This document shows, in pieces, positions 17,757 to 38,039 of a stretch of DNA of 64,000 nt. The stretch comes from Anaerolineae bacterium. GTDB taxonomy: Bacteria > Chloroflexota > Anaerolineae > JAADDB01. A program made the translations under genes and the position numbers. Below the pieces are notes generated by a model, which worked only from the letters and a program-made list of their open reading frames with translations, ran no database searches and was not told the origin of the DNA. The stretch lies in the NCBI GenBank assembly GCA_015490995.1, contig WFWT01000001.1, positions 10,021 through 74,020 of the forward strand, read 5' to 3'. Numbering within the stretch: position 1 is the first letter of the stretch; each line of letters starts with the position of its first letter.

Positions 17757-17772
17757 ACTTGAGGTAATGTGC

Positions 17773-17806
17773 GTCGGCCCGGCGGTTTCGAGACCGCCGG
17801 GCCGAC
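17773..17806 (+). terminator. Intra-operon hairpin/attenuator after the SBP gene
   Basis: 14-bp perfect inverted repeat GTCGGCCCGGCGGT ... ACCGCCGGGCCGAC with a 6-nt loop, 17 nt after the SBP stop. Confidence 0.4.
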
Positions 17807-17894
17807 CTCTTCAACACGCGCTAGAGGGATAAGGGCCACGACAGCCCTCGCAAATTACAGGTAAGTGTTTAAGGTACGTGTAAGGAGAAACAGC

Positions 17895-19711: not shown

Positions 19712-19831
19712 ACTCAGCCCCGGACAAAGGTGACCAGGAGGAAGGGAGGGGAAATGTAACACGAGGTGAGTCCCCTATCCTGGAGAAATGTTCCTGAATA
19801 TCTGGACAAGCTTAAAAAGCGGGGGAGCACG

Positions 19832-20920: not shown

Positions 20921-21026
20921 TGACATGCCTACACTGACATAAGGGGATTATCCGACCATACCGAAGGATCGTACAATTCCGTTCGCGGTAGGAGGCACTC
21001 TCACACACGTAACGTGCAACGACGAT

Positions 21027-21064
21027 GAGCCGTCTCCAATAGGGTGAGACGGCTCTAATTTTAT
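21027..21064 (+). terminator. Rho-independent terminator of the sugar ABC operon
   Basis: 10-bp perfect stem GAGCCGTCTC/GAGACGGCTC, 9-nt loop, followed by TAATTTT. Confidence 0.6.
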
Positions 21065-21118
21065 GCCAACCAACTTTCCTAAAACCTGGATGGAAAGGGG
21101 GGGACACAGCAACATATC

Positions 21119-22582
21119 ATGCACGCGACACAGACGTTAACCCAACAACGTGCTCTGGCAGAACGGTACACACCCATTATTTTTGCCGATGAGGCCGAAC
21201 CCTTCCAGCCAGAACTGGTAGGGTATACAATCTTCCGGCAGAGTGGTCCGTCCCTCTCCTTCCCCCGTACTATTGACGTCCATCCCCCGGTGTGGCGGGT
21301 GATCGAATATGCCATCTGGTGGGATTGGGATATCGGTCACCTCTACGAGTTGGAACACGTGTGGGTATACATTGACGAAGAGGAACGCGTTATCAAAGTA
21401 GAGGCATCCTGGCACGGGACGTATCACGAGATGCGAGTTGACGGGAGTATTCCCCTGGAAGGCACGCACCCCATTGTCTACGCTGAACCTGGCAAACACG
21501 CAATGGCCCCCTCGCCGGAGTGGCATACCCGTCGTGCATCTCAGATCATCCTTGCCTGTACCCGATTGGCCGGTGCTGGTGGAGTGTGGGAAAACGTGCT
21601 TTACGGTAGGCCCGAAGTGAAATCCCCACGTGTCGATCGGTTGGTGCGCACGTATCTACGGCGCAAAGCCTTTGTACCCACGTTCCGCTTTACACGCCAA
21701 ATTGCCGTGAAACCGGATATTCTCGTCCCCTGGCGGGAAATGGAACGCTTAATCCCAGCCCGCCTGCGGGTTTGGGTTCACCACCTGGAGCGCGCTTTGC
21801 CCGAGGAAGAACTTACCATGTTGGCTATCGCACACCGAGGAGCGTCGGCCCACGCACCAGAAAACACCCCTCTTGCCATCCGCTTGGCCGCCAGCATGGG
21901 AGCCGACATGGTGGAAATGGACGTCCGGGTCACAGCTGACGGGGTGCCCATCGTCATCCACGACCACGACCTCAAACGTTTGGCAGGCCGTGGTATCGAC
22001 GTTCACGAATTGACGCTGGAAGAGATTCAGGAAGTTCCGTTGCCGGAAAACCAACACATACCTACCTTGCACGAAGCCCTTTCCCTGTGTCGCGAGCTGG
22101 CCATCGGCGCCTACCTGGAATTGAAGGAGCCGGGCACAGCGATTCCGGCCGCGTTATTGGTCCGTCAGACGGGCATGACCTTTCACACGATTTTTAGTTC
22201 TTTTCACGCCGAGCTGTTGCGGGAAGTGAAACGTGTTCTGCCCCACGCCAGCACAGCTATTCTCTTCCGAGATATTGACGTTGATCCATTAGATCTGGCT
22301 GCGCAGGCGGCGGCGGATTACGTCCATCCTGCTTGGGAAAAAGCGGCGCCCCGTCCCGATTTCCTCCTTTCGCGGGCCTGGGTGGAACGAGTCCACGCCC
22401 AGAATCTGGGCATCATCACTTGGCATGAGGAACGCCCTAACGTAGTACGTGCCCTCCGTCACCTGGGCGTGGACGGCATTTGCAGTGACCGGCCAGATGT
22501 GCTTATGTTGGCCAAAAGTGGTCCCGCACTGCCAGGCAACACCCGATGGCACAACGATGGGTACACGTTGACGGGCAATTGA
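21119..22582 (+). CDS. Two-domain protein: N-terminal 230-aa domain of unknown function fused to a glycerophosphodiester phosphodiesterase (GDPD) domain
   Basis: C-terminal half carries GDPD motifs (IAHRGAS..PENT, EMDVRVTADGVPIVIHD, ELK); the N-terminal half has no family I can recognise. Confidence 0.75.
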   Translation: MHATQTLTQQRALAERYTPIIFADEAEPFQPELVGYTIFRQSGPSLSFPRTIDVHPPVWRVIEYAIWWDWDIGHLYELEHVWVYIDEEERVIKVEASWHGTYHEMRVDGSIPLEGTHPIVYAEPGKHAMAPSPEWHTRRASQIILACTRLAGAGGVWENVLYGRPEVKSPRVDRLVRTYLRRKAFVPTFRFTRQIAVKPDILVPWREMERLIPARLRVWVHHLERALPEEELTMLAIAHRGASAHAPENTPLAIRLAASMGADMVEMDVRVTADGVPIVIHDHDLKRLAGRGIDVHELTLEEIQEVPLPENQHIPTLHEALSLCRELAIGAYLELKEPGTAIPAALLVRQTGMTFHTIFSSFHAELLREVKRVLPHASTAILFRDIDVDPLDLAAQAAADYVHPAWEKAAPRPDFLLSRAWVERVHAQNLGIITWHEERPNVVRALRHLGVDGICSDRPDVLMLAKSGPALPGNTRWHNDGYTLTGN

Positions 22583-22631: not shown

Positions 22632-23774
22632 ATGGTGAGCCAAGTCGTCGAAACCACGGTCAGCGTCGGTTGGATTCTGGCCGCGGATGTGGTGGACGCT
22701 ACTATCCTGCGCGCGTACTACCAGGCACGAGATATCGTTTTGCGCATCTTACAGGACCAATTTCCGGAATTCTCCTGGGAGATGCCCTTTGTCGAGCGCA
22801 GGGTGTATATGCCCCTGGGCGCATTAGACCCCCTTCCTCTGGCCGAACTGGGCGCGGAAGAGAAGATTTACCGTCACTGGGACTACGCCATCGTGCTGGT
22901 GCCCAACGAGCTCAACCCCCGACATCGCATCTTTACCCTAGCGTTGCCCTCTTCCGCCCTGGAAGTAGCCGTTGTCTCCAGTGCGCGCCTTGGTCACGAT
23001 GAGGGCGCAGCAGAACGCTTGGCCGCCCTAGTCCTTCACGAGTTAGGGCACCTGTGGGGGCTGGATCACGCCCCAGAAGGACCTATGGTGCCACCAGCGG
23101 TGCCGGAACAGCTACAGGTCACTCTCTTTCCGCGTGAACAACAAGAGGCCATCATCGCCCACCTGCGGCCCATCGCGGACGCCCGTCTGGAAGAACAACA
23201 ACCGCGCTGGAACATTTTCCTCTTTTACATTCGCACCTTCTTCCTCAATCCACGTGAGATTCTATTGAGCATCTGGGGATACACTCCCTGGAGAATGCCC
23301 CTATACCTCGGGCGCCTCACAGCAGCGGCGGCCATCTCCACCATTTTCCTGCTCCTAACCGCGGAGGCATGGGAAGTGGGAAGTCATCTTCCGGGCAACA
23401 CGTTCTTCTTTGCTCCCCTGGGTGCTATCCTCCTGGCCACACTGGCCCTTTTCTTCGGCCAGAACATGGGACAAGTTACCCGGGAGATAGCCCTACGAGA
23501 ACAGGCCGCCCGAACCCGCATAGTGCTCTTCGGCACGCTCCTCCTCGGCATGAGCGCGGTTTGGGGTGTAATTTACGTTATCTCTTTGCTCATCGCCTTT
23601 TTGCTCCCCCGTAGTGTACTCGCGCAGTGGGCCGGTATCAACCTCGACACCTTGGCGGTGCTTCGCTACGCGAACTTCATGGCCACTGTAGGGGTCCTGG
23701 CCGCTGCCCTGGGGGGCAACTTAGAAGAAGAGGGAGACATCAAAGCAGAAGTGCTCTTTGACGAGGAAACATAA
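22632..23774 (+). CDS. Putative membrane-anchored zinc metalloprotease (metzincin-like HExxHxxGxxH)
   Basis: HELGHLWGLDH motif in a soluble N-terminal domain, followed by 4-5 predicted TM helices. Confidence 0.45.
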   Translation: MVSQVVETTVSVGWILAADVVDATILRAYYQARDIVLRILQDQFPEFSWEMPFVERRVYMPLGALDPLPLAELGAEEKIYRHWDYAIVLVPNELNPRHRIFTLALPSSALEVAVVSSARLGHDEGAAERLAALVLHELGHLWGLDHAPEGPMVPPAVPEQLQVTLFPREQQEAIIAHLRPIADARLEEQQPRWNIFLFYIRTFFLNPREILLSIWGYTPWRMPLYLGRLTAAAAISTIFLLLTAEAWEVGSHLPGNTFFFAPLGAILLATLALFFGQNMGQVTREIALREQAARTRIVLFGTLLLGMSAVWGVIYVISLLIAFLLPRSVLAQWAGINLDTLAVLRYANFMATVGVLAAALGGNLEEEGDIKAEVLFDEET

Positions 23775-23867: not shown

Positions 23868-25826
23868 ATGGACAATAAACGCCGGTATGGTATTGGGCTC
23901 CTGAGCATTACCGGGCTCGCTTTTGGCCTGCGTTGGGCTTATCCCACGCTCGTGGAGTTCGGATTTGATGAGGCCCACGTCTCCCGCCTTGCCCTGTTTA
24001 TCGCCCATTATGGCTATCGCCCGGTGTTCGGGGTGGAATCGTCCATTGGAGTACGGCAGTTTCCCCTGTTCCTGTACCTAGCTTCCCTGCCTCTCCGCCT
24101 ATGGCCCCACCCGTTAGCTATTGTATTTTTCATCGCCGGTCTGAACGCGTTGGCCGTACCCCTCACGTACATGCTGACGCGACGTTACTGGGGGCCACGC
24201 GCAGCACTTGTAGCCGCGCTGTTATTTGCCGTGAACGGGTGGGCTGTCCTTTATGGTCGCAAGATATGGGTGCAGAACATTACCTTGATCACCGTTCTTT
24301 TCGGCATGGTCTTTTTCCGGGCCTTTGTGGACGACCGTCCTTGGGCTTGGCTTGTGGTCTGGCCAGCAGTGGCGGCGTTAATCGGGCTCCACCTCGAGGG
24401 CCTTGCCTTTGTGGTGATCGTACTCCTGGCAATGGTCCTGCGAGGACGACACGTGCCTTGGCGATGGGCCATCACGGGCATTGGCTTGTCCGCTTTAGCG
24501 TTAAGCCCCTACCTCATAGCTGACGCACGCGCGGGGTGGCGTAACGTGCACAATTTCTGGCACTACATCGGACAAAGCCCAGGCCTTGTGACGCTGGACG
24601 CCTGGCAGTTTGCCCTTCGGCTGGCCAGTGGACAGGCACTCACGGTGCTAGCCGGCCAAAACACGGCACAACTCACATCTCAACTCCCACCGTTCTGGCT
24701 GTTGGATACCGGCATGGGGATCTTGTCGGCCCTTGGTCTCCTCTACGCGCTGGCGCGTGGCCTAAAAGATCGAACCTGGGGAGGACGCCGTTACGTGGCG
24801 TTGGTGTTATGGTTTGTTATTCCTGTACTTTTACAAACGTATCACACCCGCCCCGTGTACCCACGTTATTTCACGATACTCTACCCGGTGCCCTTCATGC
24901 TTGTTGGAGCTCTGGTAGCAGAGGGCCTCCCTGCGCTCAGAAACTGGTTAAGCGATCGTGTGGTAGGCTGGCTCCGATGGTGTGTTGGCGGTTGGCTGGG
25001 CGCGTGGGCCGTGTGGCAATTCGTTCTTTTGCTGGCCATCTGGCGTTTTGTGGACTCTTACCCAACACCGGGCGGCTTCGGAACTCCGCTGAAATATCCT
25101 TGGTCGGCTGCCGAGGTGGCCAAAGCTACAGCCGGAGAGGGGGAGATTATCGTGATGGCCCCTGCCGGTGAACTGGAGTGGAGTGTCCCCCGCCAGATGT
25201 TTGACGCGCTGCTCTTTACCCACGAACGGCGCTTTGTCAACGGCCAGGAGACAATTATCTTGCCCAAGGGCTCTGTCGTCTATATCGTCGGACCTCTTGC
25301 GCCTCAGGACGACGCTATGGCTGCAACGTTAACCTTCCTAGAGACTTACGGTAACGTCCAACGTATCACCACAATAGAGGATCCCAACGACCAGCGGTTT
25401 ATCGTGCTGCGCCGTACCGATGGGCCGCAGTCTATGCCCCCCACGTTCACGTTGTGGACGCCTCCGGTAAGGTTGGCCAACGGCGTGCGTTTCTTTGCGT
25501 TTGCCATACGCCCTGTCGACCACGCTTGGGAAGTGTGGCTGGGATGGGACATCGAACGTGTGTCCGAGGAAATGTACCGCATTTATGTCCACGGGTTGAA
25601 CGCTCAAGGCAATATCGTTGCCCTTGGAGACATCAGTGGTCTATTGCCTTATTATCGCCGAGAGGGGGATCGCCTGTTCAGCCGAGTGGTGCTTCCCACA
25701 TCCCCTAATATGGTCAGGATTCGCGTGGGCATGTACATCTACCCTACACAACAACGGATTCCCATTGTGTCACCGCCTGCTTGGGCAGGGAAGGATGGGG
25801 TCACGTTAAGCTTAGCACCCCAGTAG
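23868..25826 (+). CDS. GT-C-fold glycosyltransferase (ArnT/PMT family-39-like) membrane protein
   Basis: 652 aa with roughly 12 N-terminal TM helices including the characteristic first-loop region, plus a C-terminal soluble domain. Confidence 0.6.
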   Translation: MDNKRRYGIGLLSITGLAFGLRWAYPTLVEFGFDEAHVSRLALFIAHYGYRPVFGVESSIGVRQFPLFLYLASLPLRLWPHPLAIVFFIAGLNALAVPLTYMLTRRYWGPRAALVAALLFAVNGWAVLYGRKIWVQNITLITVLFGMVFFRAFVDDRPWAWLVVWPAVAALIGLHLEGLAFVVIVLLAMVLRGRHVPWRWAITGIGLSALALSPYLIADARAGWRNVHNFWHYIGQSPGLVTLDAWQFALRLASGQALTVLAGQNTAQLTSQLPPFWLLDTGMGILSALGLLYALARGLKDRTWGGRRYVALVLWFVIPVLLQTYHTRPVYPRYFTILYPVPFMLVGALVAEGLPALRNWLSDRVVGWLRWCVGGWLGAWAVWQFVLLLAIWRFVDSYPTPGGFGTPLKYPWSAAEVAKATAGEGEIIVMAPAGELEWSVPRQMFDALLFTHERRFVNGQETIILPKGSVVYIVGPLAPQDDAMAATLTFLETYGNVQRITTIEDPNDQRFIVLRRTDGPQSMPPTFTLWTPPVRLANGVRFFAFAIRPVDHAWEVWLGWDIERVSEEMYRIYVHGLNAQGNIVALGDISGLLPYYRREGDRLFSRVVLPTSPNMVRIRVGMYIYPTQQRIPIVSPPAWAGKDGVTLSLAPQ

Positions 25827-26042: not shown

Positions 26043-26636
26043 TTAGGAACCCGAGGGGCTAGGAGGTAACCATGATGTATGAGCGTTGAGACGGGTAGCG
26101 ATGTCCGCGTGAAGCTGTGGGATGACGGTAGCGTACAGGAGTTCCCCGGCCTCTGTGGACTCAGCACCTAAGGTAACTGCAGCTTCAACATCCGCGACAG
26201 GGCCGTGGAAAAACACGAGGCCTTTACCCCCCAGCCCATCGGCCAAACGCACTTCCAGAAGCTGGACCTCCGCTCCTTTCCGACCGGCATCCGCAGCCCG
26301 GATGGCCGCCGCTACCGTGCGTGTTTCGACAATGCCAAGCGCTTCCAACACAGGCGGCCAGCGAGCCCCCTGTTCAACCGCCGCGACTACATCCTCGTGT
26401 ACTCCGGGTAAGTATACCTCACCTACCAGAGCAGCCGCGCCGGCCCGGCGACCGGCTACCAGAGCTTCCTCAACTTCTGCCACCGCGCCGGCCACTAATA
26501 CCAACAGCTTTCCCGGCTGGACAGTGCCCACGTGTACGTGGGCTACCGCCGCTCGTTTCACCATCGCATCGGCTGCTTCAATGCCCACAGCAATGCTGTC
26601 AAACTCCAGCAACGCCAAGGCCGGGTAGGTAGTCAC
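26043..26636 (-). CDS. BMC shell protein, tandem BMC-domain trimer type (BMC-T, PduT-like)
   Basis: Two consecutive PF00936-like BMC domains ([26 protein letters not shown] ... and ALGIVETRTVAAAIRAADAGRKGAEV ...), collinear with PduT. The pore Cys of PduT is replaced (GTVQPGK); GTG start with an AGGAGGGAAGG SD. Confidence 0.8.
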   Translation of the reverse strand: MTTYPALALLEFDSIAVGIEAADAMVKRAAVAHVHVGTVQPGKLLVLVAGAVAEVEEALVAGRRAGAAALVGEVYLPGVHEDVVAAVEQGARWPPVLEALGIVETRTVAAAIRAADAGRKGAEVQLLEVRLADGLGGKGLVFFHGPVADVEAAVTLGAESTEAGELLYATVIPQLHADIATRLNAHTSWLPPSPSGS

Positions 26637-26651: not shown

Positions 26652-28157
26652 TTATACAATACGGAAGTGGTCAACCAGGGTGCAGCGGCGTGGCCGGGCA
26701 AAGGTGCGTGCGTTGGTCAACCCTTCGCCGGTAGGACTGGCGATGCTGAAGGAGGTATATCCTTCCCCGCCATAGCCTAACCCGGCCAAGTTAGGCCCGT
26801 TCTTCACAAAGATCGAGGTGTTTATCTCTCGGGCCATCCGGCTTAGATTATCCAGATTTCGGGACCACATCACAGCCGTATGGCCAAAACCATGTTCGGC
26901 CTCCACGGCCAGCCTGATCGCTTCATCCACATCCCGCACTCGCACAATGGGCAATACCGGCATCAATTGTTCTGTCCACACCAGTGGATGCTCTACAGGC
27001 ACCTCAATGATAATCAGGCGGACACGGTCATCTGCAGGGATGCCCAACTCCTTAAGGAGGGCTGCGGCCGATTTCCCCACCCACGATTTACGAATGACCC
27101 CCGGCCGACGTGGTCCACGCATTTCCTCAAAAATGATCTTCTCTAAACTGCGGACGCGATAGGATGGTAATTCTACGGCGCCGTGAGCTGTCATAGCCTG
27201 TTTCAGGGCATCTGCGACTTGATCTACGACGAACACCTCCTTTTCATCGGTGCATACGATGTTATTGTCAAAGGATGCCCCCATTACTATGCCCTGACCG
27301 GCCTTTTCAATGTCGGCCGTCTCATCTACTACCACGGGGGGATTTCCAGGACCGGCACAGATAGCCCGCTTACCCGAGCGCATGGCCTCTCGCACCACCC
27401 CCGGCCCACCGGTAACCAGCAATAACCGCACACCGGGATGACGCATAAGTGCCTGTGCCGTCTCTATGGTGGGGTCCGCGCACGCGGTGATCAAGTCCGG
27501 CGGTCCCCCTGCCGCTCGGATAGCTCGGTTCAGCAACTGAATCTGGAAGGTGTTCACCTGTTTGGCACCGGGATGTACATTGAATACCACGGCGTTGCCC
27601 GCGCTAATAATGCTGATTGCGTTGTTGATGACCGTAGCCGTGGGGTTGGTGATAGGTGTAATCGCGGCAACCACACCGTACGGAGCCCACTCTGTAAGGG
27701 TCAACCCGTCATCACCACTCCATGCTACCGGCTCTAAAATTTCTGGTCCCGGGGTTTTGGTAGCGACTAGCTCGTTCTTTTTGACCTTATCCTCCACTCG
27801 ACCGAGACCCGTTTCCTCATGGGCCATGCGTGCCAGGAGCTCAGCGTTTTGCAGAGAGACGTCCCGAATGGCCTGAATGATGCGCTTTCGCGCGGCAAGG
27901 CTCAAACGGTTTAGCTTCTGATAAGCCACCCGTGCCGCGCGCACGGCGCTATCCACATCTGGATAGATGCCATCCTCGCCGGAGACCACAGGAGGAGCGA
28001 TTTCTCGGCCAACCCGGCCTACATGTGAAAGGTGAGGAGGTGGCCCTTCCTCCTTCTGCACCTGAGAAGCTCCCGTCACCGTTCGGCCTTCACGCTCCTT
28101 TAAAGCGGTCAGAACACGCTGTGTGATCGCCTCGATAGTACGTTCATCCAAAGGCAT
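26652..28157 (-). CDS. CoA-acylating aldehyde dehydrogenase (PduP/EutE family) with N-terminal encapsulation peptide
   Basis: Catalytic region VCTDEKEV and overall PduP/EutE-like architecture. N-terminal amphipathic helix ERTIEAITQRVLTALKE followed by a Pro/Gly-rich linker, as in BMC-targeted aldehyde dehydrogenases. Confidence 0.88.
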   Translation of the reverse strand: MPLDERTIEAITQRVLTALKEREGRTVTGASQVQKEEGPPPHLSHVGRVGREIAPPVVSGEDGIYPDVDSAVRAARVAYQKLNRLSLAARKRIIQAIRDVSLQNAELLARMAHEETGLGRVEDKVKKNELVATKTPGPEILEPVAWSGDDGLTLTEWAPYGVVAAITPITNPTATVINNAISIISAGNAVVFNVHPGAKQVNTFQIQLLNRAIRAAGGPPDLITACADPTIETAQALMRHPGVRLLLVTGGPGVVREAMRSGKRAICAGPGNPPVVVDETADIEKAGQGIVMGASFDNNIVCTDEKEVFVVDQVADALKQAMTAHGAVELPSYRVRSLEKIIFEEMRGPRRPGVIRKSWVGKSAAALLKELGIPADDRVRLIIIEVPVEHPLVWTEQLMPVLPIVRVRDVDEAIRLAVEAEHGFGHTAVMWSRNLDNLSRMAREINTSIFVKNGPNLAGLGYGGEGYTSFSIASPTGEGLTNARTFARPRRCTLVDHFRIV

Positions 28158-28160
28158 GGG

Positions 28161-28457
28161 TTACTCCGCTCCTTTGCGGTATTTCACCTCACCGTTCACT
28201 TCCCACTCGTCAATGATAGCCATGATCACCGCGTCACAGGGTCGCTTGTCCGTCAGGACGGTCTGGCGGGCTGAGGAGCCCGTGGCATACAACACATATT
28301 CACCAACACCTGCTCCCACTGCGTCCACGGCCACCACATATCCCTCTTTCTCCTGGCCGTTGACGTCTACCTGGCGCAGGAGAAGAAATTTCAACCCCTC
28401 CATCTTTGGGTCCTTCCGGGTTGCGACAACAGTACCCACCACTTTGCCTATGAGCAT
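28161..28457 (-). CDS. BMC vertex protein (BMC-P; EutN/PduN/CcmL family)
   Basis: 98-aa protein [15 protein letters not shown]...LKFLLL matching the EutN/CcmL fold signature. ATG at 28457 with a GTGAGG SD; an alternative GTG at 28469 overlaps the upstream stop. Confidence 0.8.
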
Positions 28458-28465
28458 GGTTCGCC

Positions 28466-29308
28466 TCACTTGGGCTTTAGCTCTATGTCGACGGATGGGG
28501 ATTCGGACGTGGGCGGTTCAACCTGGGCTTTGGGTTGACGTGGTACCCCGGGGCGCGTTGCCACTCGGGGACGCCGGGCGCGCTTGGGTGGAGGCGCCGT
28601 GCGCGCGATAAACGCGCGCAACCGTTCACCTGCCCGGTCCGTCAGCACCGGCCCATGGCCAAAACACGCTACCTGTACATTCTTCAGCCGCCCTAGCTTA
28701 CGCAGTGAATCGCGCACAATCTCAGGCTGAGGGGTGAACACAGCCGGTGGAAGCGCCAGTTTTCCTCTCCGATGAGAAATTACATCCCCCACAAAGAGTA
28801 CTCCTGTCTCCTTGTGATAAAGGGACATATGGCCTGGCGTGTGACCGGGCGTGTGGATGACCTGTAGACCGTTGTCCAGTACCTCGGTATCCACCACCAA
28901 CAGGTCGGGCTGCAAGCGGGGTAGCCGTAACACGGTGCGACTGAGCAAGAAGTAAAGGGGGGTGATCAACACGCCCAGGGGATGTCGGAAATTAGGCCAC
29001 CGATGCCATTTCCCTTTAAAAAACATCGCCTCAATGGCATGCACCACTACGCGCGCGCCTGTCGCCTCTCGGATCACCCGCAACCCACCGGCATGATCGG
29101 TGTCGGCATGGGTGATGAGAATCTCCTTTATGTCTTCTGGGTTAAACCCTGCTTCCTTGATTGCGTTTAGGATCTTCTTACCATGCCATGGAAGGCCGGT
29201 GTCAATGAGGGCGAGATGACCATCCCATCGCCACAAGTAGACGTTTACCGAACTACCGATATCATCAATGTGCCACACATTTTCGGCTATCTCCTTCACG
29301 CGGCTCAC
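28466..29308 (-). CDS. MBL-fold metallo-hydrolase embedded in the BMC operon
   Basis: Beta-lactamase-fold motifs: the metal-binding motif reads [11 protein letters not shown] (H-x-D-x-D-H variant of HxHxDH), plus downstream HTPGHTPGH and a GD..H ligand region. Pro/Arg/Lys-rich C-terminal tail of about 45 aa. Confidence 0.8.
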
Positions 29309-29335: not shown

Positions 29336-29632
29336 TCACGTGTTCTCCACTGCTTCTTGACGACCCAGGGGGAGCACACGGTCCACGTTCGGGTGCGGCC
29401 GCGGAATGACGTGGACAGCAACGACTTCACCCACACGCTCGGCGTTACGTGCACCTGCTTCCACCGCTGCCTTTACCGCCGCCACGTCGCCCCGCACAAT
29501 AGCGGTGACATACCCGCCCCCGGTTTTCTCGTATCCTACCAGTTCAACCTTTGCTGCCTTGACCATAGCATCCGCGGCTTCCACCACGGCGGCAAAACTA
29601 CGGCATTCGATCATACCCAACGCTTCGGCCAT
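29336..29632 (-). CDS. BMC hexamer shell protein (BMC-H, PduA/CcmK-like)
   Basis: MAEALGMIE...[42 protein letters not shown]...VHVIPRPH is a near-canonical BMC-H sequence; ATG at 29632 with an AAGGAGGG SD. Confidence 0.92.
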
Positions 29633-29752
29633 TGTGCCCTCCTTGCCCATTTGAAGTAAAGTTAAAAATGACGGTTCACTCTTTCACAGCCTCATGTTTC
29701 GGGCTAAGAGAACGTCCCATAGGACGAACGGGAGCTCTCCCAATAATCGTGA

Positions 29753-30385
29753 CTATCCGCCGCTCAGGGGACGACCGGTAATGCTTTCGATGGCTTCCAC
29801 GGCTGCCCCATAGCCGGCCATGATATCCCGCTCCTCACCACCCAGGTAAACACGACCAAACGCTCCAAAGGCCCTCACCTCCAAGATGTTGATGTGGGCC
29901 CGCTTCTCGGCCTCGTTGGCAGCAAGGGCTGCATACCCCGCGGGCTCAACTTCTAAGACATAAAGGGTTTGCCCGGGAATAAGCATGTGCCCATGACGCA
30001 TCCGGTTGATCAGCTGGGCTTGAAGTCCGTGTACGTTCCGAATAATTTGGCTGGAAAGAATGCGAGGCTTCAGCCGGTCCTCCTCTTGGAGGCCCAGAGC
30101 CTCCAAAATAGCCACGCCCGCCGCGCGCACATCCGCTTGGGATGGCCCGTGCACTTCTAACAGGCCATACCGTCGTTCCACAATTTGCATGCCCGGGAAC
30201 ACCCCCGTGGCTTTGATGGCAATATCCGTCACCCGGTTGATCTCAATCCCCGGTGAGATCTCCACCCACAAGGAGGCATCGCCGGCCAACGGGAGGAATC
30301 CCTGGGCTACCGTGCCCAGAAAGGCGGCAAATTGGGGTTGCAAGCTATCAATGAACACAAACGACCGGAGTTGCACGTCACTCAT
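29753..30385 (-). CDS. BMC shell protein, double-stacking tandem-domain type (BMC-T, CcmP/CsoS1D-like)
   Basis: 210 aa with two BMC-like halves (...[20 protein letters not shown]... and ...[18 protein letters not shown]...GGEERD...), strongly reminiscent of carboxysomal CcmP. Overlaps the deoC stop by 8 nt. Confidence 0.72.
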
Positions 30386-31292
30386 AGAGGGCCTCCTTTT
30401 GATGGGAAGGGTGTGCTACCTGGGCGGACGCAGAACCGGACTCGGTAACAATTTTCACACCCGCACTGGCACCGATACGTGTGGCGCCGGCGGCGATCAT
30501 TTGCCAGGCAACCTCTGCAGTGCGAATACCACCAGCAGCCTTTACCCCTACTTCTCCACCGACCACGCGACGCATCAGCGCGACATCCTCTACTGTAGCG
30601 CCGCCTGGACCGAACCCGGTGGAGGTTTTTACATAATCGGCTCCTGCAGCTTTCGCCAGCACACAGGCCTCCACTTTCTCTTCATCGGTCAGCAAGGCAG
30701 CTTCGATAATAACCTTCACGATCGCTCCCTGCCGATGGGCCACCTGGACTACAGCAGCGATGTCCTCTGCCACTGCCGCGTACTGCTTGGACTTAAGGCG
30801 GCCGATGTTGATGACCATGTCGATCTCACGTGCGCCATGCGCTATACTCCGCTCGGTCTCATATGCTTTTACCTCGGTCAACGTCGCCCCCAGGGGAAAG
30901 CCCACCACGGTACACACGGCAACATCGCTCCCGGCCAGCAGCTCTCGGCACAGGGCCACCCAGGTGGGATTAACACACACCGCAGCAAAACGGTATTGTT
31001 TAGCTTCCGCACACAAACGACGAACTTGCTCCTCAGTAGCATCCGGTTTGAGCAGAGTGTGGTCAATGTACCGAGCTAAATCGGAAGCCACATTGCCTAC
31101 GCCCAATCGGGCGCTTAACCGATCGGCCCCGGCATTCAACATGGCGCGGGCCGCTTCCGGGCTGTGAACAACGCAATTGCCATCACAGGAGGTACACACT
31201 TCGCAGGACGCGCGACCGTACCGACGCAGCACTTCGTCGGTAATGAGATCGATCAGTTGATCCAAAGTGTACTCCCCAATACGTTCAACCAT
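30378..31292 (-). CDS. deoC: Deoxyribose-phosphate aldolase (DERA) with 80-aa N-terminal extension (encapsulation-peptide-like helix plus CxxCxxCx3C motif)
   Basis: DERA core from [15 protein letters not shown] through the catalytic Lys regions ([14 protein letters not shown]). The N-terminal [18 protein letters not shown] helix and [13 protein letters not shown] motif precede the catalytic domain. Confidence 0.88.
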
Positions 31293-32013
31293 CTTTCCCT
31301 CGAGACCGCATGTAGCGTCGTTCGATTTGCATGATCTTATCCACCCGTCGCCGGTGTCGTCCGCCGCCGTACGGCGTCTCCAACCAGGTTTTCACAATCT
31401 GTTTGGCCAGGTTCGGGCCGATGAGGCCCGCGCCCAGGGTTAGCACGTTCGCGTGGTTGTGTTCACGGCTATTCACCGCGGTAGCTATATCATAGCACAT
31501 CGCAGCACGAACGCCCGGAACTTTGTTACACACCATACAGGAGCCAATCCCCGCGCCGTCGATCATGATGCCATACGTCACTTTACCCTGGGCCACCAGT
31601 TGTGCCACCGCGTACGCGAAGTCCGGATAATCGACGCTTTCCGTACTGTGAGTGCCCACGTCGACACAATCCCACCCCAGCTCTCGCAGATAAGGCTTGA
31701 GGGTTTCTTTCAACGCGTATCCCCCATGATCGGCCCCAATGGCAATCACACGTGCATCCCGAGCCGTGACGTTGGGCACCAGCGTATCTTCCACCAGTTG
31801 AATACCACGCTCGCGTGCCCGCTCGCGGGCCAGAGGGGTAACAATAGCACCAGAGGGGACATGAACCACATCACCTTCCGAGAATCGCTCCACAAAAGCC
31901 GCGTCGATAAGGCGACGGTCCTCAGCGGTATTGTCTGTCACAGCCTGCTCAGCCACGAGGCGACGCACGATCTCTTCCACCAGACGACGGACATCCTCGC
32001 GAGAGGGATTCAC
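31285..32013 (-). CDS. rpiB: Ribose-5-phosphate isomerase B (RpiB/LacAB family) with 90-aa N-terminal extension carrying an encapsulation-peptide-like helix
   Basis: RpiB core begins [14 protein letters not shown] and includes the active-site Cys region [11 protein letters not shown]-terminal [17 protein letters not shown] amphipathic helix; start overlaps the lepB stop (ATGA). Confidence 0.85.
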
Positions 32014-32645
32014 GGCTCCTTCTCTCCAGATGACGGATGTTCAAAGGAGGATGGGTACGTGGCGTGGGGCACGGGACCGAAGCGGTCAAGCGGCCAGAAG
32101 CGCCACACGGCCTTGCCCACAATTAAATTTTGTTTCAACACGCCCCAGCTGTGGGAATCGTTGGAGTTGTTACGATTGTCTCCCAACACGTACACCTCGT
32201 CAGGCCCCACGGTGACCGGCGCGGCCGTGTATGTCGGAGACGCGAGAATATACGGCTCTGGAAGGGGCTGCCCGTTGATGTACACCCGCCCATCCTGGAT
32301 GGCCACCGTTTCCCCGGGCAAACCGATCACGCGCTTGATCAGCGTGCGTCGAGGGTTTAGAGGATATCGGAAGACAATGATATCCCCGCGCTGGGGATGA
32401 CCTTGCCAATACGCCATACGGTATACAAACACGTACTCCCCATCACTCAAGGTTGGCTCCATGCTGGTACCGGAAATACGAAAGTTGATGAACACAGCCC
32501 GCAACGTGAAAAACAAGATGAGGGTAATTAGAAAAACCTCCAACAATTGACGCAGCGCGCGGGCTAACTCCGAGGCTTCGATCTCATCCCCGGCCAGTGT
32601 GATGTACTCTTCCCTCACCTCTGAGATGCGCTCCTGCACGGTCAT
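32010..32645 (-). CDS. lepB: Signal peptidase I
   Basis: GTSMEPTL (catalytic Ser box), RGDIIVF, and GDNRNNSNDSH boxes; ATG at 32645 immediately after the gltX stop. Confidence 0.85.
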   Translation of the reverse strand: MTVQERISEVREEYITLAGDEIEASELARALRQLLEVFLITLILFFTLRAVFINFRISGTSMEPTLSDGEYVFVYRMAYWQGHPQRGDIIVFRYPLNPRRTLIKRVIGLPGETVAIQDGRVYINGQPLPEPYILASPTYTAAPVTVGPDEVYVLGDNRNNSNDSHSWGVLKQNLIVGKAVWRFWPLDRFGPVPHATYPSSFEHPSSGEKEP

Positions 32646-32649
32646 CGGT

Positions 32650-34170
32650 TCACACCGGCGTCGTTGCAATTAAGCGCTCGAGGCGGGCAATGGCCTCGTC
32701 CAAACGGCGCAACGTGGTTTCCCGTCCCAGGGCCAGGATCATGTCAAACAACGGAGGCGTGACTTTCTTTCCCGAGATAGCCACTCGGATAGGGCTGAAC
32801 ATCTGGCCAGCTTTCAAGCCCATGGCAGCTGCTTTGTCACGCAGCGCTTGTTCCAAGGCCTCCGCTTCAAAGGGCACGGTAGCGATAATCTCGCGCGCCG
32901 CACGCAACGCGGCCAAAGTCTCGGTCGCCGAAAGCTTCTTCGCGATCAACATCTCCGGATCATACGTTAAGGACTCGGCATACAAAAAGTCAAGCAGCGC
33001 CGTGGCCTCGGTAAGACGTTTAATCCGTTCCTGCACCGCTGGCAAAAGGCGACGCAACCGCTCGTCCTGACGCAACGTTTGCGCTGGAATTCCCAAATCA
33101 TGACTGAGGAAGGGAATCAGCCGCTCCAACAGCTCCTCTGTAGGGAGAGCACGAATGTAGACGCCGTTCAACCATTCCAGTTTGCTGTAAGGGGCAGCGG
33201 CCGGTTTCGGGTTGATATCCTTAATGTCAAAGTGCCGAACCGCCTCTTCCAGGGTGAATACCTCGGCTTCATCCGGAGGGGTCCACCCAATACGCGCCAA
33301 CCAGTTCACTATCGCTTCCGGCAAATATCCTTGTTCGCGAAAATCGCGCACCAAGATGGGCAAACCACTCTGCGCCGCGCGCCGTTTACTCATCTTGCCC
33401 TTGCCAGAAGGGTCAAGAATTACCGGCAAATGACAGTGAACGGGCATAGGCCACCCGAACGCGTCGTACAAAAGCTTGTGGCGGGGCAAGCTGGGAATCC
33501 ATTCCTCCCCACGGAGCACATGTGTGATTCGCATGTGATGATCGTCGACCACTACGGCCAAGTGATAAGTGGGAAACCCATCAGACTTCAACAACACAAA
33601 GTCATCCAGCGTATGCGCAGCTACCACTACCTCTCCCCGCAAAAGATCTTGAGCCACAACTTGGCCCTCCAGAGGGCTTTTAAAACGGATGACATAAGGC
33701 CGCCCTTCTGCCTCACGACGGGCTACCTCAGCAGGAGAGAGACGACGACAGCGGCGATCGTAGCGCGGCGGTTCACCACGAGCCTGCTGCTCCCGCCGCA
33801 TTTGGTCTAACTCCTCCGGTGTACAGAAACACTTGTACGCGTGCCCCTGCGCCACCAGCCAGTGAGCCCATTCCTGATACAGCTCCAACCGCTCGGATTG
33901 AACATAAGGCCCATAAGGACCACCTACATCAGGCCCTTCATCCCAGGCAAGCCCTAACCACCGCAACCCGTCCATGATGTCCTGTACCGAATCGGGCACG
34001 TAGCGCTTCCTGTCCGTATCTTCTATGCGAAGAACGAAAACCCCACCACAGTGACGCGCGTACAGCCAGTCATAAAGGGCGGTTCGAGCCCCACCTATGT
34101 GCAGGTAGCCTGTCGGGCTAGGTGCAAAACGCACGCGCACGGTTGTGGATATCGTTCCCTCGGATGCCAT
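32650..34170 (-). CDS. gltX: Glutamate--tRNA ligase
   Basis: Class-I HIGH region (PSPTGYLHIGGARTAL) and KMSKR motif; start at 34170 or 34188 (uncertain). Confidence 0.9.
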   Translation of the reverse strand: MASEGTISTTVRVRFAPSPTGYLHIGGARTALYDWLYARHCGGVFVLRIEDTDRKRYVPDSVQDIMDGLRWLGLAWDEGPDVGGPYGPYVQSERLELYQEWAHWLVAQGHAYKCFCTPEELDQMRREQQARGEPPRYDRRCRRLSPAEVARREAEGRPYVIRFKSPLEGQVVAQDLLRGEVVVAAHTLDDFVLLKSDGFPTYHLAVVVDDHHMRITHVLRGEEWIPSLPRHKLLYDAFGWPMPVHCHLPVILDPSGKGKMSKRRAAQSGLPILVRDFREQGYLPEAIVNWLARIGWTPPDEAEVFTLEEAVRHFDIKDINPKPAAAPYSKLEWLNGVYIRALPTEELLERLIPFLSHDLGIPAQTLRQDERLRRLLPAVQERIKRLTEATALLDFLYAESLTYDPEMLIAKKLSATETLAALRAAREIIATVPFEAEALEQALRDKAAAMGLKAGQMFSPIRVAISGKKVTPPLFDMILALGRETTLRRLDEAIARLERLIATTPV

Positions 34171-34458: not shown

Positions 34459-35421
34459 ATGACCATAAGTAAAGTAACACCTCCAGCGTTCTGGGAAGTG
34501 GCCCTCCCGGAGGCCCACCGCGCGACGATGTGGGACACGTTGTGCCGGGCCGTCGCCGAGGATGTAGGTGACGGCGACGTCACGACCGCCGCGATTGTAC
34601 CTCCTGAGTTGTACGGACATGGCTATTATGTTACTAAAGCGGAAGGCGTCATTGCCGGCTTGACAGTCGCCAGAGCCGTATACTACCTACTGGATCGCCG
34701 TGTGCAGTTTACTCCTCACGTGGCTGAAGGCACACTTGTGCGCCCAGGACAGGTAATCGCCACCGTCCACGGGCCTGTCCCTGCCCTCCTGACCGGTGAA
34801 CGGGTAGCACTCAACTTTCTCCAACGCATGTCAGGAATCGCCACCTTAACACGTCAATTCGTAAATGCCATAGCCCACACGCGTGCGGTCATCCTTGACA
34901 CCCGCAAGACCGCTCCTGGCCTGCGATTGTTCGATAAATGGGCCGTACGTATCGGAGGGGGCGAAAACCACCGTCTGGGCCTGTATGACATGGTGCTTAT
35001 TAAGGAAAATCACATTAGCGCCGCCGGTACCCTGACCGAGGCAGTACGGCGTGTGCGTGCCCGCTACGGAAGACAATACCCGGTCGAAGTAGAGGTTCGC
35101 ACCCTGGAAGAACTGGTAGAAGCCCTACACTTAGGGGTGGATCGCATCCTGTTGGACAACATGGATGTGGCCACCTTGCGGAGGGCGGTTGCATTGGCCC
35201 AAGGTCGCGTGCCCCTGGAGGCGTCGGGCAATGTGACCCTGGCCAATGTGCGCGCGATTGCCGAAACAGGTGTGGATTACATATCCGTAGGGGCGTTAAC
35301 GCATTCTCCCCGCGCGCTGGACATTAGTTTCCTCTTACATCGGAAGAGCGGGGACGAAACAGAGACAGGCACCCAGCCCACACCAGCACAGCACAGGGAG
35401 GAAGCGCGATGCCGGCTGTAG
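34459..35421 (+). CDS. nadC: Nicotinate-nucleotide pyrophosphorylase (quinolinate phosphoribosyltransferase)
   Basis: QPRTase motifs (TRKTAPGLR, IKENH, LDNM) with a short C-terminal extension. Confidence 0.88.
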   Translation: MTISKVTPPAFWEVALPEAHRATMWDTLCRAVAEDVGDGDVTTAAIVPPELYGHGYYVTKAEGVIAGLTVARAVYYLLDRRVQFTPHVAEGTLVRPGQVIATVHGPVPALLTGERVALNFLQRMSGIATLTRQFVNAIAHTRAVILDTRKTAPGLRLFDKWAVRIGGGENHRLGLYDMVLIKENHISAAGTLTEAVRRVRARYGRQYPVEVEVRTLEELVEALHLGVDRILLDNMDVATLRRAVALAQGRVPLEASGNVTLANVRAIAETGVDYISVGALTHSPRALDISFLLHRKSGDETETGTQPTPAQHREEARCRL

Positions 35422-36473
35422 CAAGCGTTATCTCGGCAGAACAATTGTACGAACGGCTAAAGGCGCAGCTAGACGGTATTGCGCCGGATGTGGAACTCCG
35501 CTATAAAGCACAACTGGCGGCGGAAATCCTCCGATTAAAAGAAGAACGTAACGCGCTGATCCTGGGCCACAATTACATGGAACCCGCCCTGTACTATTCC
35601 ATTCCGGACTACACCGGAGACTCCCTGGAGCTCAGTCGCAAAGCGGCCCAAACCGACAAGGACATTATCGTGTTCTGCGGAGTCAAGTTCATGGCGGAAA
35701 CGGCTAAAATCCTCAACCCAGATAAACTGGTCCTTCTACCTTCGGAAAAGGCGGGGTGTTCCTTGGCCGGTAGCATCACCGCGGAGGATGTCCGCTGGTT
35801 AAAAGCGCGGTTCCCGGGAGTACCCGTCGTAGCGTACATTAACACGTACGCTGAGGTCAAAGCCGAGGCAGATATTTGCTGTACCTCCAGCAACGCGGCT
35901 GCGGTAGTAGAGTCCCTAGGCAGCGATACAGTGATCTTCATTCCAGACGAATACCTGGCCCGCAACGTGGCACGAGAAACCGGTAAGCACATCATCGTGC
36001 CCGTACGGCTACCGAACGGCCAACTCTCCGTTGATGATACTGTGGTTGACTACCAAATCATCGGCTGGTACGGCCGTTGTGAAGTTCACGAAAAGTTTAC
36101 AGTGGCCGACATCGAGGCCATTCGAGCACAGTTTCCCGACGTCGTAGTGCTGGCGCACCCGGAGTGTAGCCCGGACGTTGTGGCTGCGGCAGACTTTACG
36201 GGTAGCACCAGCGCGATGATCCGCTTCGTGCAGCAATCCTCCGCCCAACGTTACGTGCTCTTGACAGAATGCGCGATGGGCGACAACGTAGCAGCCGCGA
36301 CCCCAGATAAGGAAATGGTGCGTCTCTGCAGCATCCGCTGTCCGCACATGAACCAGATCACTTTGGAGGAAACTCTGAGCGCCCTCCGCCAGTTGCGGTA
36401 TGTTATCGATGTCCCTGAGCCCATTCGCTCTCGGGCACGTCGCGCCGTAGAACGTATGCTACACATCGGATAG
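35409..36473 (+). CDS. nadA: Quinolinate synthase
   Basis: NadA motifs (LILGHNYM, VKFMAETAKILNP, conserved Cys ligands); overlaps the nadC end. Confidence 0.9.
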   Translation: MPAVASVISAEQLYERLKAQLDGIAPDVELRYKAQLAAEILRLKEERNALILGHNYMEPALYYSIPDYTGDSLELSRKAAQTDKDIIVFCGVKFMAETAKILNPDKLVLLPSEKAGCSLAGSITAEDVRWLKARFPGVPVVAYINTYAEVKAEADICCTSSNAAAVVESLGSDTVIFIPDEYLARNVARETGKHIIVPVRLPNGQLSVDDTVVDYQIIGWYGRCEVHEKFTVADIEAIRAQFPDVVVLAHPECSPDVVAAADFTGSTSAMIRFVQQSSAQRYVLLTECAMGDNVAAATPDKEMVRLCSIRCPHMNQITLEETLSALRQLRYVIDVPEPIRSRARRAVERMLHIG

Positions 36474-36479
36474 GGCACC

Positions 36480-38039
36480 ATGCCCCACACCGTGGATGTT
36501 GTCGTTATCGGATGTGGCATTGCCGGTGGGATTGCTGCCCTGCGCCTCGCGGATGCGGGCCATAGGGTTGTCCTTCTCACCCGGAGCCATGACCCGCGAG
36601 AAGCTAACACATATTACGCTCAAGGCGGCATCGTCTACCGAGGGCGTAACGATTCACCCCAACAACTGGCCGATGACATCTTCCGCGCCGGAGCATATCG
36701 CAACCACCCCGACGCTGTCACCCTGCTGGCAGAAACAGGACCTTCCCTGGTAGAGCAGTGGCTTATCCGGCGACTGAAGGTCCCCTTTGACCGAGAGGCC
36801 GGCACATTCAGCTTGGTACGAGAAGGGGGCCATTCCGTGCCGCGCATCTTACATGCAGCAGATGCGACCGGCAAGGCCATCCATATCGCCCTTCTCCGGG
36901 CATTACAACAACACTCTCACGTTAATCTGTACCCAGGGCACACAGCTGTGGACGTGATCGTGGACAGGGAAACGACCACACCGCGGTGTGTGGGCGTGTG
37001 GGTGCTGGATCAAAGGACCGGCCAGATAATACCCATTCTGGCTCCGTTTACCATCCTAGCCACAGGAGGATACGGATACCTTTACGCCCGTACCACCAAC
37101 CCGGTCACCACACGGGGAGACGGTGTGGCTATGGCGTGGCGCGCGGGGGCGCGTGTGGGCGGGTTGGAGTACGTCCAGTTTCATCCCACGGCTTTCGCCC
37201 ACCCAGAAGCTCCGCCCTTCCTCATCTCTGAAGCCGTTCGCGGGGCCGGCGGCCGTCTTGTTCACGCGGATGGCTCCCCGTTCATGGCACGGTACGCGCC
37301 GGAATGGCAAGATCTAGCTCCCCGCGATATCGTCGCTCGGGCCATATTTGAGGAAATGCGCACTCACCACCTGAGCCACGTGTACCTCGACCTGTGCTCC
37401 GCATTGCCTGCCGAACACATCCGTCAGCGTTTTCCCACCCTGTACCTACGCTGTTTGAGGTACGGCGTAGACATTACCCGAGACCTTATTCCGGTCGCAC
37501 CGGCAGCTCACTACACTTGTGGCGGTGTACAAAGCGACCTGTGGGGACGCACTACACTCCCCGGCCTGTACGCCGTAGGTGAGGTTGCCTGGACGGGTGT
37601 ACACGGTGCAAATCGCCTGGCCAGCACATCTCTGTTGGAAGGACTGGTCTGGGGGGTGCGGGCTGCGGAGGACATCCTAAGCATGTCCCGCCCCGCCATT
37701 CCCTCCCGCATACCAGAGAAGTCTCCTCCACGGTTGCACAAATCCCCTCCTTCGACTATCCTTAAGACGTGGCGCGAGCAAATTCGGCAGCTCATGTGGG
37801 AGCATGTAGGCATTGTGCGGGATGCCCAGGGACTGGCCCTTGCCCGAGAACGGTTGGCGACCTTGGCGGAGGCCATAGAGGCAGCGTACAGTACATATGG
37901 TGTGACAGACAATCTGGTGGGTTTGCGTAACATGGTCCAGGTTGCACTCTTGGTGACAAGGGCGGCAGAAGCGAACCCCCACTGTGAAGGATGTCACTAC
38001 CGGGCAGACACCGTCCAGGCAGAGGCTCATGTCCGCTGA
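36480..38039 (+). CDS. nadB: L-aspartate oxidase
   Basis: FAD-binding VIGCGIAGG N-terminus, succinate-DH/fumarate-reductase flavoprotein fold (HPTA, GEVAWTGVHGANRL); directly follows nadA. Confidence 0.9.
   Translation: MPHTVDVVVIGCGIAGGIAALRLADAGHRVVLLTRSHDPREANTYYAQGGIVYRGRNDSPQQLADDIFRAGAYRNHPDAVTLLAETGPSLVEQWLIRRLKVPFDREAGTFSLVREGGHSVPRILHAADATGKAIHIALLRALQQHSHVNLYPGHTAVDVIVDRETTTPRCVGVWVLDQRTGQIIPILAPFTILATGGYGYLYARTTNPVTTRGDGVAMAWRAGARVGGLEYVQFHPTAFAHPEAPPFLISEAVRGAGGRLVHADGSPFMARYAPEWQDLAPRDIVARAIFEEMRTHHLSHVYLDLCSALPAEHIRQRFPTLYLRCLRYGVDITRDLIPVAPAAHYTCGGVQSDLWGRTTLPGLYAVGEVAWTGVHGANRLASTSLLEGLVWGVRAAEDILSMSRPAIPSRIPEKSPPRLHKSPPSTILKTWREQIRQLMWEHVGIVRDAQGLALARERLATLAEAIEAAYSTYGVTDNLVGLRNMVQVALLVTRAAEANPHCEGCHYRADTVQAEAHVR

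Follow-up and report, generated by a model that had tools for sequence, protein, structure and literature searches.

A metallo-beta-lactamase-fold gene at the BMC-H/BMC-P junction of a Chloroflexota SPU3-type microcompartment locus, a candidate accessory hydrolase that has co-diverged with deoxyribose-5-phosphate aldolase

What might a metallo-beta-lactamase (MBL)-fold hydrolase do when its gene lies between two shell genes of a bacterial microcompartment (BMC) operon? The question is raised by a 64,000 nucleotide stretch of DNA from an Anaerolineae bacterium (contig WFWT01000001.1, positions 10,021 to 74,020; the whole of this stretch is called the window below, and its numbering is used for features in it), in which a tight operon on the minus strand has the gene order RpiB-DeoC-BMC-Tdp-BMC-H-MBL-BMC-P-AldDH-BMC-T, where RpiB is a sugar-phosphate isomerase (RPI), DeoC is deoxyribose-5-phosphate aldolase (DERA), AldDH is a CoA-acylating aldehyde dehydrogenase and the BMC proteins form the shell. 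Compartments of the sugar phosphate utilizing (SPU) type are among the most widespread BMCs and have barely been studied experimentally, and they raise the question of how CoA and NAD+ are dealt with in the types that lack a phosphotransacylase (PTAC). The initial annotation of this DNA proposed that the MBL protein answers it by hydrolysing acetyl-CoA inside the shell. We find that the gene is a member of the operon, that it is conserved in a monophyletic clade of such loci, that it has co-diverged with the DERA gene and that it is retained where the locus has lost its shell genes and AldDH. We put at about 0.5 the probability that the gene, inherited along with that of DERA, encodes not a luminal acetyl-CoA-to-CoA recycler but a lineage-specific accessory esterase or thioesterase, probably non-encapsulated.

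The recycling proposal started from the absence of PduL and alcohol dehydrogenase (ADH) from the operon, and this absence is real: a Pfam sweep of essentially all open reading frames (ORFs) in the window returned no PduL (PF06130), Pta (PF01515), iron-type ADH (PF00465) or zinc-ADH domain. It is also ordinary. The locus has the make-up of an SPU3 locus, with DERA (PF01791), RPI (PF02502) and AldDH accompanied by BMC-H, BMC-Tdp and BMC-T shell proteins in the same order as in more than 70 related loci, and SPU2, SPU3 and SPU6 loci are given in the supplementary tables of the BMC catalogue (Sutter et al. 2021, PMC8217296, Supplementary Data 2) as generally holding AldDH, DERA and RPI only, without PTAC or ADH. 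Dwyer, Sutter and Kerfeld 2024 (PMC11585597) describe BMC-Tdp as typical of PTAC-less SPU operons and propose its large gated pore as the exit for acetyl-CoA. Since a missing PduL/ADH pair is thus the norm for SPU3 and a Tdp protein is encoded here, the absence itself calls for no replacement enzyme, contrary to what the initial annotation had supposed. The resemblance to published SPU3 loci (PMC8217296, PMC11585597) extends to the encapsulation-peptide-like N-terminal extensions on DERA, RPI and AldDH. The window differs from them in the MBL gene between BMC-H and BMC-P (with a pyrophosphatase gene added in sister loci, below) and in having one local BMC-P gene, where a BMC-P triplet is said to define all SPU types; profile search with PF03319 and tblastn each find a single BMC-P gene in the 64-kb window, and a satellite BMC-P locus may lie elsewhere in the genome.

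The MBL gene itself (28466..29308, minus strand) encodes 280 amino acids counted from the first GTG. We take 29299 as the probable true start, giving 277 amino acids, because the database orthologue P0001 begins there, three codons downstream of the first GTG, and because GGAGG lies 8 nt 5' of the GTG at that position. The gene is separated from BMC-H by 27–36 nt and either overlaps BMC-P by 4 nt or lies 8 nt from it; no terminator-like site is present inside it or at its junctions with BMC-H and BMC-P, and its GC content is like that of its neighbors, all of which supports operon membership. No GC or skew anomaly of the kind expected from horizontal insertion is seen at the gene, and scans for internal promoters or terminators gave nothing above chance.

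The protein belongs to PF00753 (117.5 bits against a cutoff of 22.7, E = 9.6e-34), and its predicted structure is the alpha-beta/beta-alpha sandwich of the MBL fold, which starts at residue 4 and is followed, after the last metal motif, by a single helix (residues 226–237) and an unstructured tail. The metal motifs D36, H67-x-D69-x-D71-H72, H156 (in PGHT), D175 and H218 are invariant or nearly so: across 25 aligned family members no variation is seen at H67, D71, H72, H152, H156, D175 or H218, and 90% or more of them have D69. The five canonical MBL motifs (D, HxHxDH, H, D/C, H) are therefore all present with a sole deviation, Asp for the second His, in the segment H67-A-D69-T-D71-H72 (29093..29110, minus strand), read from the sequence and kept in the family. 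This H-x-D-x-D-H form occurs in 82 of the 120 best homologues, so it marks a wider family, apparently largely Chloroflexota judged by the available source names, and is not specific to BMC-linked proteins; in the literature we found the motif once, in a putative lactonase of Acinetobacter. The basic, Pro-rich C-terminal tail (residues 238–280; 28469..28597, minus strand) has 11 Pro, 10 Lys + Arg and 4 Asp + Glu among its 43 residues and contains a conserved 26-residue core, APPxKRRxxPxK...GVPRQPKA. Its composition and conservation hold in 16 of 16 orthologues, including those at loci without shell genes, and the motif PRQPK is confined to MBL tails in the three loci scanned (the window, L004 and L173). 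The HADTDH motif and the Pro/Arg/Lys-rich tail of a gene between BMC-H and BMC-P are thus as the initial annotation described them.

How widespread is the gene at this position? Scanning one genome per GTDB species with the window AldDH as query gave 80 loci (55–77% identity), which were annotated by means of the window's proteins. The order RpiB-DeoC-Tdp-H-P-AldDH-T-P-P is common to Planctomycetota, Calditrichota, Acidobacteriota, Gemmatimonadota and Chloroflexota. In 75 of the loci the BMC-H/BMC-P junction can be seen; it is a gap of less than 500 nt (median 129 nt), with no room for a gene, in 70, and is occupied in the other five by an unrelated 3.5-kb insert (one locus) or by an MBL gene (four loci). 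With 70 of 75 loci lacking a junction gene, the MBL protein is not a general recycling solution. When loci reached through MBL homologues, beyond the AldDH scan, are included, window-family MBL genes are found at the junction in nine independent loci (window/L001, L004, L173, L179, L010, L011, L066, L093 and L177); generic MBL patterns dominated a metagenome scan made with the MBL alignment, whose informative yield was L093 and L094 only. The MBL-bearing loci form one clade in a neighbor-joining tree of AldDH (L066, whose AldDH contains Ns, is unplaced), and wherever their sequence extends far enough downstream, the trailing BMC-P pair seen in nearly all other loci is missing from them. The junction position is fixed within the clade even though the MBL proteins are only ~41–71% identical and the AldDHs ~70–79% identical to those of the window. 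One member, L173, keeps Tdp-H-MBL-P-AldDH-T without an adjacent DeoC or RpiB. The conservation among SPU loci that the initial annotation envisaged therefore holds at one junction and in one clade and fails in the 70 loci above, and its fallback, that absence from orthologous loci would make the gene a passenger, does not agree with retention at the junction in the closest orthologous loci. The gene is neither a one-off passenger nor a general SPU feature.

Five of the nine loci have an additional gene, for a family I inorganic pyrophosphatase, in the interval between BMC-H and MBL (L066 8273-8815; L010 723-1265; L011 8456-9001; L177 7426-7971; L093 4935-5474); its product has ~180 amino acids and no extension. 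The MBL proteins of these five loci are tail-less, with no extension at all, and neither the window nor any other locus whose MBL bears a tail encodes the pyrophosphatase, so that the two never occur together in the loci seen. The same BMC-H/BMC-P junction holds a non-orthologous canonical MBL (H-S-H-P-D-H, 206 amino acids) in L017 (55-2445), another Chloroflexi SPU3-like locus, which is placed elsewhere on the AldDH tree; the genes on either side of this MBL are a weak VOC/glyoxalase-superfamily gene and one that is DinB/mycothiol-S-transferase-like. A DinB_2 gene is also found in L033, in the interval from AldDH to BMC-T, and the neighbors in L017 and L033 hint at thiol-dependent detoxification in some SPU3 loci.

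Relatives of the window MBL outside compartment loci proved informative about its history. Its homologues fall into a tight clade of 16 clusters (61–100% identity, 259–289 amino acids, all tailed) and, after a sharp drop, a tail-less group (~237 amino acids, ~36–47% identity, many of them Chloroflexota by source name); in an exhaustive search of 1.84 billion representatives the tail clade was one 50%-identity cluster, with 34 clusters at E <= 1e-30. The same search, examined for fusion proteins, returned essentially only single-domain proteins of 211–274 amino acids, the exceptions being one fragment and one 381-residue protein with an N-terminal extension. Within the tail clade, L007–L009, L174 and L175 (63–68% identity) have the order GltX-SPase-DeoC-MBL-thiolase-SDR (SPase, signal peptidase I, lepB; SDR, short-chain dehydrogenase/reductase), with the same flanks as the BMC loci L004 and L179, and the complete genome of Caldilinea aerophila (AP012337, L090), L092 and L176 have SPase-DeoC-small ORF-MBL. 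In these loci no shell gene, AldDH or RpiB is found within 8–10 kb. A further BMC-less locus, L178, has SPase-small ORF-MBL without DeoC. The name Caldilinea was not found in the shell-protein trees of the BMC catalogue, as far as their text is searchable.

SPase is a syntenic anchor common to the BMC-containing and BMC-less MBL loci: it lies 5' of RpiB or DeoC in L001, L004, L179, L011, L066, L093, L177, L013 and L054, and 5' of DeoC or MBL in L007, L174, L175, L090, L092, L176 and L178, and it is also upstream in several MBL-free Chloroflexota SPU3 loci. On the DeoC tree all the MBL-linked proteins, whether or not their loci encode a BMC, group as a single clade within the SPU3 DeoCs, and the branching of this clade mirrors the MBL tree. 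BMC-type DeoCs have an N-terminal encapsulation-peptide helix, the motif CxxCxxCDGxC (window 31170-31205, DeoC residues ~30–41) and then a conserved 11-residue segment; the Cys motif and the 11-residue segment are lost from the BMC-less DeoCs, in most of which a helix like that of an encapsulation peptide is all that remains; the DeoC of L176 has not even the helix. These vestigial helices fit reductive loss, at the same site downstream of lepB, from a BMC-containing ancestor.

Is the MBL protein inside the shell? DERA, RPI and AldDH of the same operon carry encapsulation-peptide-type extensions. Encapsulation peptides are terminal amphipathic helices of ~18 residues joined by a poorly conserved linker, and neither element is seen in the MBL protein, which has no N-terminal extension and no predicted helix in its tail (the modelled tail has no secondary structure, with pLDDT 68–82). 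The tail is also not specific to BMC loci: its 26-residue core is kept in P0010–P0016, of which the loci of P0011, P0014 and P0016 were checked and lack shell genes, and it is equally conserved at shell-less and BMC-linked loci. The extreme C-terminal segment (..IELKPK / ..LEE) was considered as a BMC-specific shell tag and ruled out, as P0003 lacks it and yet belongs to the complete BMC locus L179. The core being kept at shell-less loci and the C-terminal segment not tracking BMC context, the tail is probably not a dedicated shell anchor, which argues against the shell-binding role that had been suggested for it. On the predicted structure and sequence comparison the MBL protein is probably not encapsulated.

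The chemistry can be narrowed further by family and structure comparison. Closest structural neighbors include the thioesterases PqsE and the YcbL glyoxalase II, and are not of the RNase Z or phosphodiesterase types, and human MBLAC2 provides a precedent for an acyl-CoA hydrolase with the MBL fold (PMC7949124). Ester, thioester or lactone hydrolysis thus appears more likely than phosphodiester chemistry for the modelled protein. The comparison with GloB, RNase Z and phosphodiesterase subfamilies that the initial annotation had in mind therefore gave thioesterases among the neighbors and, at the same time, scores far under the GloB cutoffs and a plateau of similar matches. None of the specific families tried fits: GloB equivalogs TIGR03413 and NF007597 (53.2 bits against 200.8 and 37.6 against 421), subclass B3 metallo-beta-lactamases (NF033105, 74.6 against 240, over residues 6–96 only), the acyl-homoserine lactone lactonases AiiA/AidB (NF045699 and NF047979, 47.8 against 375 and 46.5 against 360) and the NCBIfam pyridoxolactonase equivalog (far under its cutoff) were all rejected, as was a PduL or Pta identity (no PF06130 or PF01515 match). 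The helical C-terminal substrate-binding domain of canonical GloB is missing, one helix (226–237) and the tail standing in its place in the model, and there is no glyoxalase I partner in the window. Relative to the minimal glyoxalase II YcbL-GloC (PDB 2xf4) the window protein has Asp for the second His and its own helical insertion at about residues 95–135. PqsE (2-aminobenzoylacetyl-CoA thioesterase) and human MBLAC2 are only 22–24% identical to it, and PqsE, unlike it, has a canonical HxHxDH motif and extra C-terminal helices. Its likeness to PduL/EutD is at most the role given to it in the initial annotation, release of free CoA from acyl-CoA: fold and chemistry are unrelated, phosphorolysis conserves the acyl-phosphate and hydrolysis does not, and PduL carries encapsulation peptides where the MBL protein has none.

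The most economical history for these observations is the following. A single recruitment of an MBL gene into an SPU3-type (DERA/RPI/AldDH) operon downstream of lepB, at the BMC-H/BMC-P junction, would have been followed by vertical inheritance with the DERA gene and by later loss of shell genes, AldDH and RpiB from the locus in at least two lineages, with DeoC and MBL kept. The product is a small single-domain MBL-fold metallohydrolase with a dinuclear-type ligand set, and its most likely role is that of a soluble accessory esterase without encapsulation-peptide targeting. Thioester hydrolysis of the glyoxalase-II/PqsE kind is our leading guess for its chemistry, and its substrate may be a small, probably anionic metabolite tied to the DERA branch of deoxyribose-phosphate catabolism; like non-encapsulation, both the chemistry and this link to DERA substrates or products are what the sequence comparisons suggest.

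Several points weigh against this accessory-esterase interpretation. The structure comparison ends in a plateau from which no substrate class emerges; given the Pfam ODP match (below) and the Asp that stands in for the second His, the site may bind Fe/Mn and its chemistry may be non-hydrolytic; the protein may be encapsulated by some other route than a classical peptide, such as piggy-backing; and the encapsulation-peptide-like helices on DeoCs of shell-less loci could mean that a BMC is encoded elsewhere in those genomes. L173 (a BMC locus whose MBL has no adjacent DeoC) and L178 (BMC-less, with MBL and no DeoC) make the DERA link strong, not absolute, and the MBL, DeoC and AldDH trees are neighbor-joining trees without support values. 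Two clues, the pyrophosphatase neighbor and the polybasic tail, are unexplained by it.

The proposal of the initial annotation, that an encapsulated MBL protein with its basic tail as shell anchor hydrolyses AldDH-made acetyl-CoA and so regenerates CoA in a PduL-less shell, draws on the lack of an encoded PduL, Pta or ADH in the window, on the position of the gene between shell genes with possible translational coupling to BMC-P, on the existence of MBL-fold acyl-CoA thioesterases (PqsE among the best structural matches, and MBLAC2, PMC7949124) and on the otherwise minimal nature of the MBL loci, which lack the extra BMC-P pair. A luminal acetyl-CoA thioesterase needs both AldDH and a shell, so retention of MBL next to DeoC at loci without either argues against that as the selected function; the protein lacks a helix of the encapsulation-peptide kind, the core of the tail is conserved where there are no shell genes, 70 of 75 related PTAC-less loci do without MBL, and the BMC-Tdp protein proposed as the acetyl-CoA exit is encoded at the locus. 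Hydrolysis of acetyl-CoA would, moreover, throw away an energy-conserving thioester. We regard this proposal as improbable, and hold equally low a broader version in which MBL (with the pyrophosphatase in sister loci) is a functional module of a streamlined single-BMC-P SPU compartment, either as an encapsulated thioesterase for PduL-independent CoA turnover or as a shell-associated hydrolase whose polybasic tail captures a polyanion (DNA or nucleotides) at the surface; if true, it would be a kind of BMC accessory enzyme not yet described. Somewhat less improbable, though still unlikely, is phosphoesterase or phosphodiesterase activity on a nucleotide, nucleic acid or phosphorylated pentose at a step before DERA, with the pyrophosphatase pulling the reaction and the tail binding a polyanion such as DNA. 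The pyrophosphatase gene directly 5' of MBL in the five sister loci, its mutual exclusion with the tail, the DNA binding of K/R-rich disordered tails of Hodarchaeales BMC-P proteins (PMC12747264), the processing of DNA breakdown products that SPU compartments are thought to carry out (PMC11585597) and a weak precomputed match to Anti-Pycsar Apyc1 would all accord with it. The pyrophosphatase, on the other hand, is a housekeeping enzyme that has no extension and is perhaps merely syntenic. No pyrophosphate-releasing MBL enzyme is known to us.

A housekeeping or detoxifying hydrolase with no mechanistic tie to the compartment or to DERA, held in place by synteny downstream of the signal peptidase, is a little easier to entertain but also rather unlikely. 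It has in its favor that gltX and lepB, which flank the operon, are housekeeping genes, that L178 keeps SPase-small ORF-MBL with neither DeoC nor BMC, that many members of the H-x-D-x-D-H family have no DeoC or BMC neighbor, and that Chloroflexota SPU3 loci harbor large unrelated insertions and so their operons tolerate passenger genes. Such insertions lie within the operon in several SPU3-like loci (L042 6644-9869; L054 4945-9991; L085 83-3607; L010 3798-5129) and include ORFs that look at their N-termini like response-regulator receiver domains, others longer than 1000 amino acids (one of 1174) and a membrane protein. Synteny alone does not readily account for a fixed BMC-H/BMC-P position despite the divergence of the MBL proteins, for the congruence of the MBL and DeoC trees, for the selective keeping of DeoC and MBL through what must be several separate deletions or for the second, non-orthologous MBL at the same junction in L017. 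A very improbable alternative is that the protein is no hydrolase at all and that its MBL fold binds Fe/Mn (di-iron-like) and serves a redox or O2/NO-related function, like ODP and the flavodiiron proteins, in which the second histidine is replaced by a carboxylate. The H-x-D-x-D-H ligand set, with its 4 His and 3 carboxylates, may favor Fe or Mn, and the protein matches PF19583 (ODP) above cutoff (42.5 against 27.2 bits), beneath its much stronger Lactamase_B match. The carboxylate of flavodiiron and ODP proteins is, however, Glu and that of the window protein Asp; the operon encodes no flavodoxin domain, chemoreceptor or redox partner, and the protein is closer to hydrolytic MBLs.

The gene behind the accessory esterase favored above is a real accessory gene, conserved in a single subclade of Chloroflexota SPU3-like loci and not described before. 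Neither MBL nor pyrophosphatase is mentioned in the searchable text of Sutter et al. 2021 or Dwyer et al. 2024, and our literature search found no paper tying either to BMCs. The gene does not give a general answer to CoA and NAD+ handling in PTAC-less SPU types; what it defines is a vertically inherited Chloroflexota SPU3 variant with a single BMC-P, in which the BMC-H/BMC-P junction holds MBL alone or MBL together with pyrophosphatase. It also brings to light natural "shell-loss" derivatives that keep only DERA and MBL and thereby documents reductive evolution of a microcompartment locus, vestigial encapsulation peptides included. As Caldilinea aerophila is cultured, its DERA + MBL remnant makes the accompanying reaction experimentally tractable.

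The other operon genes, all on the minus strand, are as follows. RpiB (31285..32013, 242 amino acids; PF02502 E = 2.9e-54 over residues 90–227, with an NCBIfam RpiB/LacA/LacB subfamily match) is the first gene and shares 8 nt with DeoC; its product has an encapsulation-peptide-like N-terminal extension of ~89 residues. The SPU signature enzyme DERA/DeoC (30378..31292, 304 amino acids; TIGR00126 deoC equivalog 296 bits against a cutoff of 117, residues 72–282) has an N-terminal extension of ~70 residues that includes an amphipathic helix and the Cys motif described above. BMC-Tdp (29753..30385, 210 amino acids) is CsoS1D/CcmP-like, with a PF27545 CsoS1D_N match on the identical L001 protein and a weak PF00936 match, and is 66–94% identical among related loci. 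BMC-H, the shell hexamer protein (29336..29650, 104 amino acids; PF00936 E = 2.4e-31), and BMC-P, the shell pentamer protein (28161..28469, 98–102 amino acids; PF03319 E = 8.6e-31), flank MBL. AldDH (26652..28157, 501 amino acids; NF011927 (PRK15398) E = 3.3e-198, and PF00171) has an encapsulation-peptide-like helix at its N-terminus and is 55–79% identical to the AldDHs of related SPU3-like loci. The last gene is BMC-T (26043..26636, 197 amino acids), whose tandem BMC domains match PF00936 in two stretches (E = 8.2e-33). Signal peptidase I (32010..32669, minus strand; PF10502 E = 1e-47) is the housekeeping flank outside the BMC genes. A weak terminator-like hairpin lies at 29713-29733 (minus strand) in the 102-nt Tdp/BMC-H spacer, the terminator scan overall being not above chance.

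The small ORF of several related loci encodes a conserved protein of ~97 amino acids with a CxxC motif, a helix-turn-helix-like segment and an invariant C-terminal DHPRARLRHL(G), has no Pfam match and may be a regulator. It occupies the DeoC/MBL gap in BMC-less loci and the DeoC/Tdp gap in BMC loci (L090 7631-7927; L092 7627-7920; L176 7711-8004; L178 7681-7989; L066 6909-7259; L093 ~3292-3540); the window, in which DeoC and Tdp overlap, does not have it.

Elsewhere in the window, a tungsten-type aldehyde:ferredoxin oxidoreductase (AFOR_N/AFOR_C; 47351-49246, minus strand), ~18 kb away from the BMC operon, offers acetaldehyde another sink that needs no CoA, and pyruvate:ferredoxin oxidoreductase is encoded at 2097-5675 (plus strand). 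Just past the gltX-lepB pair that precedes the operon, and divergent from it, is an NAD biosynthesis cluster (34459-38541, plus strand) with nadC-nadA-nadB and a NiaR-like (HTH_11 + 3H) regulator. Beside the end of the operon are ORFs of 380 (22632-23774, plus strand) and 652 amino acids (23868-25826, plus strand) with no significant Pfam match, the larger having a sub-threshold PMT_2 match. Two sugar-type ABC transporter clusters (16257-22582, plus strand, and 41923-46191, minus strand) are each associated with a glycerophosphodiester phosphodiesterase (GDPD) gene, and a complete chemotaxis cluster with CheR, two methyl-accepting chemotaxis proteins, CheW, CheB and CheA lies at 55897-63568 (plus strand).

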